DNA of 58,538 bases from Stx2-converting phage Stx2a_WGPS4. The stretch is taken from the sequence record AP012538, one strand, 5' to 3'. Shown in pieces: positions 9,001-12,000 of this stretch. Within the stretch, counting starts at the first letter, position 1, and the number at the start of each line of letters is the position of its first letter. Made by a program: the position numbers.

Positions 9001-12000
9001 TGGGCGAGAGGAAAAGAAAACCCGGCATGGAGGCCGGGTTGATGATTAGCGGTGTGGCCTTGAGCGATAATGCTCACACACATGTTCAAGATTTCCATGC
9101 CTTATCCGTTCATAGGCATTCACATGAACTTCTCGATCGAATTGGTCATTCAAATTGTATGTAGACATCTGTGTTTTCTCATATTGGCGGCAGCCCTACA
9201 ACCGCTTGAAAAAATGTACCAGACGCGCTAAGGTTACATCGCAAATATTGTGTACCTTAACAAGGGCTCCTTTTGGAGGCTCTGGTTAAACAGCATCAAT
9301 GTCGGACTGGGGAGTTGGACATTGTGCTGAATGCTTTTGCATTATTGAGGCCGAACGTAAACCTTCAGAATTGAAGAGATGCGTTCGGCTTCTTCGTTTG
9401 TGATATCGTTAGGAATGCCTTTAATCGTTACTGTAACCCCTGATTCAGGTCGAAGAACTACTGGAAGATCATAGGTATGAAGTGCATTAGCCTTGCCTTC
9501 GACTTTTGTTGGTTCGCCAGTCAAATCTTTTTCCTCACTGGATTCTTTGTCAATCGGAGTGTATGGGATTTCTTCACCAGACTGGAAAGCTACAAACTTT
9601 TTGATTGCACTTTCCATGCGGCTTTTATATGCAGTAATGCTGCTGTCGCTAGGCTTCGGCTCAGTTGCGTTGATGTATCGCTCGGCAAGCTCATTCACAT
9701 CAAGCTGAGTAACATCACCCATTTCCTCTTCTTGGACTACCGTTAAGAGGCGAGCGGATGAGTTTTTTAAATTTCGAGCGGTGGCCTCCTTCATTATGTT
9801 CAGCGACATAAGCTCTTCAAGGAAGTCCTTGAATGCCTGCACGCTAACGTTTGACTTTGCCATTTGCTCTCTCTCTAAGTTATTGACTCAGATCGAGTTT
9901 ATCCAGGAATTGATTTGCATGCAAGACTCAAGTCTTGAGAATTTCCGTTCAAGATCCACTCTCAATAAAAAAGGCCGCACCTCTGCGACCTTTCATCTCC
10001 TAAATCTCTTTTCTCTTACCTAAAGAAACAGCAGGCTGGGTCAGCCCTAACAACTTCAAGTGCATCGGTCAGAGAAAGCTCCGTGCTATACAGGTGTTAT
10101 TTCATATCTTTTTGCATCCAATAAATTTTCCATCTGTCCAGAGAGCGGATGCACTTGATTCTTGTTGATGGCAGGACGTTTTTTCACCTGCCTCACCCTG
10201 CCATACAGGACGCTGCTCACCGATATCTATCGTCCGGTCATTGATGTTATAGACAATATCCAGATCATTACGGATATACTCAGATGGCCTTATGCTTTCA
10301 ATGAATAGATGAACTTCTTTTTGACCGCTTGATACTCATGGCCATTAAACTCCATCTATCCTCTTTACCCAAACGTCTCTTCAGGCCATTGGCTGGCGAT
10401 AACTTTCCCCACAACGGAACAACTCTCATTGCATGGGATCATTGGATATTGCGGGTTTAGTGGTTGTAGAAACACCTGACCGCTATCCCTGATCAGTTTC
10501 TTGAAGGTAAATTCATCACCACCAAGTCTGGCTATGCAGAAATCGCCGGGCTCAACAGCTTGCTCAGGGTCAACCAGAATTAACATCCCGTCAGGAAAAC
10601 TAGGTTTGGAACCTGTTGGTGCGGTCATTGAGTTACCTTCAACCTCAAGCCAGAATGCAGAGTCACTGGCTTTTTTGGTTGTGCTTACCAATCTCTCCGC
10701 ATCACCTTTGGTAAAGGTTCTGAGTTCTGGAGAGAACATCCCAGCCTGAACATGAGAAAAAACAGGGTACTCATATTGTTTTTTAACTGGGGCCGATGAG
10801 TATTCGCCAACAGGTGAAAATGTCCCGTCGTGGTTGAATGATATGTTATCAATACCAAGGTATTTAAACACCACACCAATATCACTAAGAGATGGATGAC
10901 GAGATCCGCGCAACCAGTGTCCAATTCCACCCTGCGTCATACCTAGCTCTTCGGCTAACTTCTCTTGAGTTATGCCGAGCTCTTTCATTCTGGATCTAGC
11001 CAGTTCATACCATTTCATTTTCATGTCCTTATTATTACGCTCTGTACTGGAACCATCCATGCACAATGTGTATTTTTACTTGTATTTGAGAAGTACATAT
11101 TGTATTTTTTATTCGTGGTTACTATGGAGGGCATATGAGCAACCTACGAAAATATCGAGAGTCACTGAATATCTCTCAAACAACACTTGCTAAGGCAGTT
11201 GGATGCACACAGGGAGCTATCGGACATTGGGAATCTGGTCGTCGCTTCCCAGACCTTAAAACATGCCGTGCTCTTGTTGCGTGTCTAAACAAGTTAGGCG
11301 CAAAAGTAAGTCTTGATGACGTGTTCCCGCCGGAGCACAAAGCCGCTTAATAAGCGGAGCCGCTCTTTGTAACAACGGACATTCGTCCTACGTCGCTGAA
11401 AAGCGAGTCCCAAGATATCTGACCAACTAAGGCCATATGCGTTTCCACGCATACCTTTCAACTAACTATTCACTATTGGAAATCTTAAGAAATGGAACGA
11501 ACAAGTTACAGCAAACTATCACAGCGCGACGTTGATCGCGCAGAAACAGATTTACTCATCAACCTGTCAACGCTTACACAGCGCGGTCTGGCAAAGATGA
11601 TTGGCTGTCATGAATCGAAGATAAGCAGAACGGACTGGCGGTTTATTGCTTCGGTCTTGTGTGCTTTCGGAATGGCATCAGACATCAGTCCGATTAGCAG
11701 GGCTTTTAAGTATGCGCTTGATGAAATCACAAAGAAAAAATCCCCGGCTGCCACCGAGGATTTTAAGCAAATTGATATGCAATTCTGAGGGAATTACTGG
11801 ATCAATCCACAGGAGTAATTATGACAAAACGTCGTAAGAAATACCAGGAAAAAGAAGAGATTCGACACCCTGATTCACCTGAGGGATTAGTGGTAGCCGC
11901 AGCAAATAACAGGGCGTTCGCAGAGCGCCTTGTTGGTGTTTACAGACTAGCCAAAGCAGGAGTGAAACATGGGCGTCGTTAAGTTAGCTGATTACAGGCC

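Follow-up and report, generated by a model that had tools for sequence, protein, structure and literature searches.

We analyzed the genome of Stx2-converting phage Stx2a_WGPS4 (AP012538; 58,538 nucleotides (nt), hereafter the window), which by its sequence is an Sp5/VT2-Sakai-type Stx2 phage, and concentrated on orfA, a minus-strand open reading frame (ORF) of its immunity region. In phage lambda, the rexAB exclusion genes fill the slot between cI and OL/pL. Because orfA lies between cI and OL/pL plus N, it occupies the same slot. The ORF call and the annotated cI, OL/pL and N agree with an initial annotation that had placed an acidic ORF of 173 amino acids (aa) in the rexAB-equivalent position, and the product is indeed acidic (pI 4.85, with 29 Asp and Glu versus 21 Lys and Arg residues). 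The region is 100% identical to those of VT2-Sakai/Sp5, Stx2-II, 1717, 2851 and the PA-series Stx phages. The gene is already known, as a "hypothetical protein" in all annotated records (RefSeq protein WP_001130059.1). Our analysis indicates that it heads a self-contained mobile cassette, one expressed in lysogens as judged from a conserved promoter and from detection of the protein.

The same annotation had described orfA as the single ORF of the slot. This did not hold, as the slot also contains a decayed DUF3024 gene, a structured element of ~175 nt and a conserved 40-aa ORF, which we call orfB. The cassette consists, in order, of a terminator, a sigma-70 promoter with an overlapping palindrome, orfA, the ~175-nt RNA, orfB and another terminator (Table 1). 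Since one promoter and one terminator frame both genes, orfA and orfB are probably co-transcribed.

Table 1. Coordinates and properties of the cassette, its products and the flanking genes (window positions, or residues of OrfA where indicated)
Feature	Position	Strand	Description
N	8341-8685	minus	Flanking gene
OL/pL operators	about 8803-8878		Annotation by Sato et al.
Downstream intrinsic-terminator-like hairpin	9018-9045	minus	dG -14.3, z -4.3
orfB (H0092)	9046-9168	minus	40 aa (MSTYNLNDQFDREVHVNAYERIRHGNLEHVCEHYRSRPHR); His/Cys-rich; phrog_21154
Structured intergenic RNA	9169-9341	minus (sense strand of operon mRNA)	~175 nt; from folding and comparison
RNA, 3' hairpin	9214-9174	minus	Outer helix pairs UUUUUUCA with UGAGAAAA, Shine-Dalgarno region of orfB
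RNA, multi-helix domain	9286-9218	minus	Closed by long-range helix P2
RNA, P1	9329-9291	minus	Long hairpin
orfA	9342-9863	minus	173 aa; ECs1184 (ECs_1184), Sp5 ORF23, VT2-Sap23 (orf22), H0093, ORF c63
Promoter/operator region	9896-9937	minus	Read from sequence
-10 TAAACT	9901-9896	minus	Spacer to -35, 17 nt
-35 TTGCAT	9924-9919	minus
Inverted repeat CAAGACT-NN-AGTCTTG	9922-9937		Perfect; overlaps -35
Upstream intrinsic-terminator-like hairpin	9967-9992	minus	GGUCGCAGAGGUGCGGCC plus U-run; dG -15.9, z -3.8
Decayed DUF3024 gene	10022-10355	minus	tblastn with intact Proteus gene
cI	10365-11066	minus	Flanking gene
cro	11135-11350	plus	Flanking gene
OrfA, N-terminal domain	residues 8-94		Four-helix recombinase core-binding-like domain; AlphaFold2, predicted local distance difference test (pLDDT) about 90
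OrfA, linker	residues 101-127		Disordered, acidic; AlphaFold2
OrfA, C-terminal domain	residues 130-168		ββα domain with motif PxDLTxxEAERI; AlphaFold2, pLDDT 85-89
OrfB type B1			57-61 aa; ...FRWxKCRFRKxRAKAGTPDSERKxLDAHxYGYKCWSFPVR; phrog_33859
OrfB type B2			47 aa; MATTICxKCGNxC...FPIPVCGC; treble-clef-like
OrfB type B3			40-47 aa; Sp5 type, VxVxxYxRIRxGxLEHVxxHxRSxP; phrog_21154

The putative promoter, TTGCAT-17-TAAACT, was not called by a promoter scanner because only 7 of 12 consensus positions match. Taken alone, this pair of hexamers would be no better than chance, but comparative data rescue it. A hexamer pair lies at a constant distance from the start codon in every homologous cassette: TTGCAA-17-TAGAAT in Proteus, TTGACT-17-AAAAAT in Serratia, TTGATC-17-TAAACT or TAGACT in the largest subgroup and, in distant metagenomic members, near-consensus TTGACA-17-TAAGAT, TAGAAT or TATATG. 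This positional conservation argues for the sigma-70-like promoter that had been proposed for the gene, from which transcription is predicted to begin near position 9889. Two palindromes had been said to overlap it. One, CAAGACT-NN-AGTCTTG, is perfect and is the sole occurrence of this repeat in the 58.5-kb window, while the other, TTGCATGCAA, is confined to Sp5 among the cassettes compared. When we searched the window for a second OrfA site, neither the palindrome nor its half-site was enriched elsewhere.

GATC-rich palindromes overlap the promoters of homologous cassettes. Counting GATC in window positions 9864-10033 and, for 28 other loci, in the 170 nt that precede the orfA homologue gave a mean of 2.45 per 170 nt, compared to 0.50 in random windows of the same loci. 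Most of these sites, which are enriched about five-fold, fall within palindromes that overlap the -35 hexamer (e.g., TTGATCGATGAATCC). These sites may make the promoter responsive to Dam or SeqA, or may belong to the operator.

Both flanking hairpins resemble intrinsic terminators. The core of the upstream hairpin, AAGGTCGCAGArrTGCGGCCTTTTT, is invariant in E. coli, Salmonella, Proteus and Serratia cassettes, whose adjacent cI genes differ, and phage SH2026Stx1 has a near-identical copy of this terminator. It would insulate the cassette from cI/pRM read-through. The downstream hairpin is built from 8 pairs, of which 6 are GC, ahead of a T-run and closes the cassette just before OL/pL; other cassettes have a terminator in the same place. 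Although the initial annotation had correctly recognized both hairpins, the first was taken to follow cI directly and instead lies ~370 nt downstream, past the pseudogene. As the promoter and both terminators are kept beside unrelated cI genes, the idea of a transcriptionally insulated unit with an autonomous promoter holds.

The second gene of the cassette, orfB, appears as H0092 in the original annotation of VT2-Sa and as gp50/gp51 in that of Salmonella phage Oslo, and is missing from the current RefSeq annotation of the Sakai chromosome. In every Enterobacterales cassette examined, a small ORF and a terminator lie 150-180 nt past the orfA stop codon. At least three types of orfB occupy this position (B1 to B3; Table 1), and no homology between B1 and B2 was detectable by hhalign. 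For B1, the variable alignment columns were distributed 24/21/52 over codon positions 1/2/3, and pairwise codon differences in the sense frame comprised 1333 synonymous and 486 non-synonymous changes. Other frames had far fewer synonymous changes, the best being one antisense frame (980 versus 903). For B3, comparison of Sp5 with Salmonella revealed 5 synonymous and 3 non-synonymous codon changes. By these patterns, the B1 and B3 ORFs are genuine genes. In Salmonella phage Oslo, SH2026Stx1, Klebsiella and locus L083, an orfA homologue always precedes the B3 homologue (41-47 aa) by ~170 nt; B3 homologues found independently were each preceded by an orfA homologue with 40-42% identity. The orfB types, for which no PADLOC scan was made, had no match in Pfam, NCBIfam or PDB sequences.

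The RefSeq record of VT2-Sakai contains a 53-aa plus-strand ORF, VT2-Sap22 (9070-9231), antisense to H0092. Because the substitution pattern favors the minus-strand ORF, this annotation is probably spurious, and we rejected it as a real gene.

In two of the three distant metagenomic loci examined, whose orfA homologues have 21-25% identity, the partner ORF overlaps or abuts the orfA stop codon. These two ORFs of 56-57 aa (L017, 5021-5191; L075, 3575-3748) have the common motif YAKRDEYHIN and may represent a fourth partner family that lacks the RNA spacer. Since a small ORF is also found beside very distant orfA genes, and since its type differs, the pairing is ancient and the partner exchangeable. 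In E. coli NJS001 pNJS001-2 (L084), an element of the IS3 family has split the orfA/RNA part from orfB, at the equivalent of window position ~9205. The copy is otherwise identical, with orfA intact and orfB cut off from the cassette promoter. This copy, a single anecdote, shows that separation of orfB from the cassette promoter is tolerated.

The segment between orfA and orfB is predicted to be highly structured. The Sp5 RNA has a minimum free energy of -54.1 kcal/mol (z -3.9), and 0 of 200 shuffled sequences folded as well. In the Sp5 group, a U-run in the 3' part is predicted to pair with UGAGAAAA, the site of the likely orfB Shine-Dalgarno sequence. Within the main subgroup, for which we aligned 15 distinct sequences, the spacer contains helices P1 (a long hairpin), P2 (long-range), P2b (inner, with an invariant UAGCGG) and P3 (a hairpin). 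Pairing was found in 92% of cells versus 34-48% in slid-partner controls, compensatory changes occurred in 12 of the 30 pairs, and the observed values were reached by 0 of 500 shuffles. The unpaired motifs UAGCGGAUC and UCAAG are invariant. The conserved G-U pairs indicate that the structure forms on the sense (mRNA) strand. For the 3' hairpin (P4), RNAalifold gave no consensus in the main group because the register shifts; P4 was seen only in individual sequences or in the Sp5 group.

A covariance model built on the main group (R1) matched after every orfA of the main subgroup (79-125 bits) and nowhere else. At E ≤ 1, R1 had no match in the window and missed the diverged variant carried by the Sp5, Salmonella, L039 and L047 cassettes; SH2026Stx1 scored 13 bits at the expected place. 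Because R1 misses the variant at this threshold, its homology to the main group rests on its position and architecture, which are the same, on its TAGCG and TCAAG motifs and on covariation of its own, in the form of compensatory changes in P2. Within the variant, the tip of P1 (9303-9318) is inverted between Sp5 and L039 (CCAACTCCCCAGTCCG) and Salmonella and L047 (CAGACTGGGGAGTTGG), with the stem preserved.

A search from the RNA side, using a 15-mer from the element, returned 28 IMG/VR loci. In 19, orfA ends about 90-97 nt upstream of the motif. Of these true loci, 18 have B1 ~62 nt downstream and the remaining one ends ~20 nt past the motif; three of the 19 that we re-scanned with R1 scored 105-124 bits. 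The other 9 loci had neither a flanking gene nor an R1 match, and we discarded them as chance matches. Searching Rfam with the window gave only GadY, which was below threshold (20 versus 45 bits) and sits on the terminator, and the element of seven other loci matched no Rfam family.

OrfA itself had been called an orphan, a description that does not survive database searches. A word-indexed search returned 44 close clusters, from Escherichia, Cronobacter, Salmonella, Yersinia, Morganellaceae and Serratia, and an exhaustive profile search returned 653 representative clusters (at 50% identity) with E ≤ 0.001. The 150 best-listed of the 653 clusters are all 110-238 aa, mostly 160-200 aa, and nearly all aligned end to end. 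All family members have the same plan, in which the N-terminal part is a conserved helical domain with the motifs TARNLKNS and YKSR, followed by a variable low-complexity linker and the C-terminal motif [LI]P[IV]xLR...hxIxGhPxDLTxxEAERI. An AlphaFold2 model made with a more diverse alignment (mean pLDDT 78) gave the domains listed in Table 1. Weak hidden Markov model matches to Phage_int_SAM in several family members agree with the helical domain, with all Pfam scores below the gathering threshold. The recombinase core-binding-like fold supersedes the earlier view that the protein has no recognizable motif.

Profile and structure searches had been proposed as a check on the gene. They yielded the weak integrase-SAM matches and the modelled core-binding-like fold, while Foldseek with the improved model found nothing at E ≤ 0.001 in PDB and BFVD. 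Searches with OrfA of Pfam, PHROGs, NCBIfam, PADLOC and PDB, the last by phmmer and by profile, gave nothing informative beyond the weak integrase-SAM matches. With the C-terminal domain alone, a profile search of PDB and Pfam returned noise only (NDUFV2, Skp1). An AbrB-like or other named fold for this domain was dropped, as it found no support in that search. In PHROGs, OrfA belongs to phrog_2602 ("unknown function"); the family has no model in Pfam, NCBIfam or PADLOC, and a scan of OrfA against PADLOC-DB v2 matched 0 families. OrfA has no Phage_integrase match, no catalytic domain and no R-H-R-Y residues. Since the catalytic domain is absent, OrfA appears to be a stand-alone core-binding-like module and, by virtue of this modelled fold, is probably a DNA-binding protein rather than a recombinase.

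Without exception, close homologues immediately follow an S24-type cI in the same orientation and precede N. This arrangement recurs in lambdoid and P22-like prophages from Proteus, Providencia, Serratia, Salmonella and E. coli, although their cI, cro and replication genes differ. Distant homologues (21-46% identity) occupy other accessory slots. In Rahnella, the homologue adjoins a tail-fibre-assembly gene at the prophage edge; in Enterobacter, it lies beside replication genes; and some distant homologues adjoin tape-measure genes. A Klebsiella phage carries one near an Imm_superinfect gene, and one metagenome contig has one beside a helix-turn-helix (HTH)/M78 peptidase pair and a type I restriction-modification (R-M) system. 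In phage Oslo, a SieB gene lies near the cassette. Comparing the slot in related phages, as had been suggested, therefore located homologous cassettes in this slot and also in tail, replication and R-M slots. Through these different slots of Enterobacterales prophages, orfA, the RNA and the small ORF move together.

The cassette is patchily distributed. Carriers made up 234 of 5426 complete E. coli genomes, with all copies at least 99% identical, and a scan of species-representative genomes with the close alignment gave one locus only. Among 72,556 plasmid records, 9 matched, all phage-like or misassigned, and on this basis we rejected a plasmid-borne addiction module. The varied slots and the patchy distribution argue that this is a mobile accessory cassette (moron) and not a core lysogeny gene.

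The space between cI and the cassette is also informative. The DUF3024 remnant fills the ~370 nt from the cI stop codon to the first terminator; in tblastn with a Proteus query, it spans two frames and contains an internal stop. This pseudogene has so far gone unrecognized in annotation. An intact DUF3024 gene lies at the same position in Proteus prophages, phage SH2026Stx1 and locus L083 and is thus a frequent companion of cI and the cassette. On the other side, the sequence AATACAATTGGTT at 8977-8989 copies, with one mismatch, half of an annotated OL operator, AATACAATTTGTT (8830-8842), and may give CI an additional site to bind in the stretch from the cassette terminator to pL. ECs1180 (Sp5 ORF21; 8031-8282, minus strand, 83 aa) lies just downstream of N.

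Two published studies bear on the function of orfA, and searches of the literature by accession, locus tag, slot and domain found ECs1184 mentioned only in these (PMC5155283 and PMC7618764). Working in a K-12 lysogen, Mondal et al. (2016; PMC5155283) used sacB allelic exchange to target every Sp5 gene of unknown function for in-frame, marker-free deletion. They obtained 43 mutants and failed only for ORF21 (ECs1180) and ORF23 (ECs1184). Their design left 9 nt at each end of the ORF. They judged deletion to be lethal. In a 2025 Nucleic Acids Research paper (PMC7618764), ECs1184 was quantified by TRAPP (purification of total RNA-associated protein) mass spectrometry in uninduced Sakai cultures. 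It was borderline-enriched in the RNA-associated proteome (false discovery rate (FDR) 0.065); in a polynucleotide kinase (PNK) assay, its signal was similar to that of the GFP control, and the authors considered it "not a strong RBP" (RNA-binding protein).

These data change what had been supposed of the gene. It had been viewed as an accessory gene, and the failed in-frame deletion in the Sp5 lysogen speaks against its being dispensable (PMC5155283). Its mobility among prophage slots fits an accessory gene, while the partner RNA and small ORF, which had been missed, alter the functional picture. Of the proposed role as a lysogen-expressed exclusion, abortive-infection (Abi) or anti-defence gene, what stands is a moron in the immunity region whose protein was detected in uninduced Sakai cultures; against it are the lack of defence homology and the 0 PADLOC matches, and we found no evidence for anti-defence. 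That orfA could not be removed is more in keeping with an addiction, antidote or maintenance role than with simple exclusion.

We favor a reading, to which we assign a probability of about 0.4, in which the cassette is a toxin-antitoxin (TA)-like addiction or abortive-infection module, with OrfA serving as its DNA-binding antidote or as an autorepressor. A self-addictive TA-like module is the simplest way to reconcile an optional, mobile cassette with the reported failure to delete orfA. The autonomous promoter and terminators, the detection of the protein, the obligate small partner, the covarying RNA and the IS3 variant also speak for this reading. TA-like modules commonly double as abortive-infection systems, a role that fits the rex slot. 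OrfA, derived from a recombinase and without a catalytic domain, would bind the palindrome at its own promoter and would repress the operon, neutralize orfB, or both, either by keeping orfB expression low or by binding its product. The 3' helix of the folded RNA would occlude the orfB ribosome-binding site, so that orfB translation would be low and tunable. OrfB would be a small effector that harms the cell or the infecting phage once OrfA is no longer available through loss, titration or degradation. An in-frame deletion, which removes only orfA and leaves the promoter, RNA and orfB intact, would then be lethal. We infer each of these steps, namely DNA binding at the palindrome, autoregulation, orfB toxicity, its neutralization and the anti-phage outcome.

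Several observations weigh against this model. In the libraries searched, OrfA and OrfB resemble no known antitoxin, toxin or defence protein. A structured spacer of ~175 nt is atypical of type II TA pairs, and it would be unusual for a toxin that the orfB slot holds at least three small-protein types without detectable homology among them. With a pI of about 7, the Sp5 OrfB has neither a basic nor a hydrophobic character. TA modules are common on plasmids, yet the cassette is all but missing there. The failed deletion of orfA amounts to one negative result without complementation or follow-up, and a second, unrelated gene, ECs1180, was equally undeletable (PMC5155283). Detection of ECs1184 by proteomics could also derive from spontaneously induced cells.

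A less probable reading, though the strongest of the alternatives, is that orfA, with or without orfB, provides a non-toxic accessory function in lysogens and that the deletion failed for technical reasons. OrfA might act in superinfection exclusion or defence by sensing or binding incoming phage DNA, or might regulate a host gene. The rex slot is classic for exclusion genes, the cassette has the architecture of a moron, and the neighbors of some copies (SieB in phage Oslo, Imm_superinfect in Klebsiella, the type I R-M system with the HTH/M78 pair beside a distant homologue) suit such a function, as does the fact that the deletion failure was never followed up. The same method, however, gave 43 other Sp5 mutants (PMC5155283), PADLOC produced no match and the proteins contain no recognizable trigger or effector domain.

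Somewhat less likely again, OrfA could be a lysogeny-maintenance factor, that is, a second DNA-binding repressor or co-repressor of a lytic or toxic Sp5 function outside the cassette. Its targets might be an antirepressor or leaky pL/pR products, so that loss of OrfA would lead to induction or killing, with the RNA and orfB as modulators. What tells against this is that the cassette is optional, occurs with unrelated cI and operator types and is also found in tail-gene and other slots far from immunity regions. In addition, the candidate operator palindrome occurs only at the orfA promoter in the window and is unlike the annotated CI operators.

We consider it improbable that the folded RNA is the core of the module, as a riboregulator, processed small RNA or sensor that controls translation of the small ORF with OrfA as its RNA-binding partner through a re-used core-binding-like domain: the RNA matches or exceeds the proteins in conservation (it has invariant unpaired motifs and 12 covarying pairs) and is strictly linked to orfA, its predicted 3' helix covers the orfB Shine-Dalgarno sequence and the RNA-associated enrichment of ECs1184 is borderline (FDR 0.065; PMC7618764), but the PNK signal resembled that of GFP ("not a strong RBP"; PMC7618764), two distant members leave no room for an RNA spacer because orfB overlaps or abuts the orfA stop codon, and core-binding domains are known as double-stranded DNA binders.

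Returning to the addiction or abortive-infection model, a more elaborate form of it is speculative. A dead core-binding remnant, a dedicated RNA and an exchangeable mini-protein effector might together form one regulatory circuit, a three-component prophage module. Equally conjectural is the way it could work, with the protein reading its own promoter, its RNA, or both, and gating effector translation to yield a self-addictive prophage, aborted superinfection, or both. If this were true, the module would be a TA/Abi architecture outside the type I-VIII definitions, located in the immunity region of the main O157:H7 Stx2a phage.

New here are the assignment of the fold, the extent of the family, an obligate small-ORF partner, an RNA motif that is supported by covariation and absent from Rfam, and the mobile tripartite architecture. 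The family is large, has no Pfam model and is built on a stand-alone recombinase core-binding-like domain. Our analysis also exposes three annotation errors: H0092 is omitted from the RefSeq chromosome, the RefSeq phage record has an antisense ORF instead, and the DUF3024 pseudogene has been overlooked. In E. coli O157:H7, stx2a is carried by Sp5-type phages, and anything that stabilizes lysogens, or kills cells in which the immunity region is lost or perturbed, bears on the persistence, induction and spread of toxin phages. For a published puzzle, that ECs1184 could not be deleted, there is now a model that can be tested, in which H0092 is the named partner and the RNA is defined. If the cassette is an addiction or Abi module, it would represent a new architecture in prophage-encoded immunity and a candidate lever to cure or destabilize Stx prophages.

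How does the cassette compare with known systems? OrfA has an N-terminal core-binding (SAM-like) helical domain similar to that of tyrosine recombinases (lambda Int, XerD, IntI; Phage_int_SAM_1/4/5/6). These enzymes have a catalytic R-H-R-Y domain, whereas OrfA ends at residue 173 with an unrelated ββα domain and cannot be a recombinase. MrpR of SPbeta and SroF of phi3T are master repressors with the full two-domain recombinase fold (~320 aa). OrfA has the core-binding-like domain only, is found alongside a classical CI and is not carried by all related phages, so it recalls MrpR and SroF only in evolutionary logic.

As in type II TA and Abi pairs, the cassette comprises two co-oriented small genes with conserved linkage and a single promoter that bears a palindrome. 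A DNA-binding fold characterizes the first product, whose gene is reportedly undeletable, and the unit moves between accessory slots of prophages. The ORFs of two distant relatives of the cassette overlap or abut, as in such pairs. Unlike these pairs, the cassette matches no recognized TA or Abi family, a structured RNA of 150-175 nt separates the genes in Enterobacterales, the second gene encodes 40-61 aa of unrelated types and plasmid copies are nearly absent.

Lambda rexAB, 933W stk and Salmonella BTP1 bstA are lysogen-expressed exclusion genes that lie beside the repressor. The cassette shares with them its slot downstream of cI and before OL/pL and N, its orientation and a likely expression in lysogens. 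OrfA has no sequence or domain similarity to their products (PADLOC, Pfam and NCBIfam gave nothing), and homology to RexA or RexB in particular found no match in PADLOC or Pfam. Compared with rexAB, the cassette has its own promoter and a terminator that separates it from cI, and the rex genes are dispensable, while orfA could not be deleted. With its own promoter and terminator, insertion between conserved genes and patchy presence among relatives, the cassette is a moron in the sense of Hendrix.

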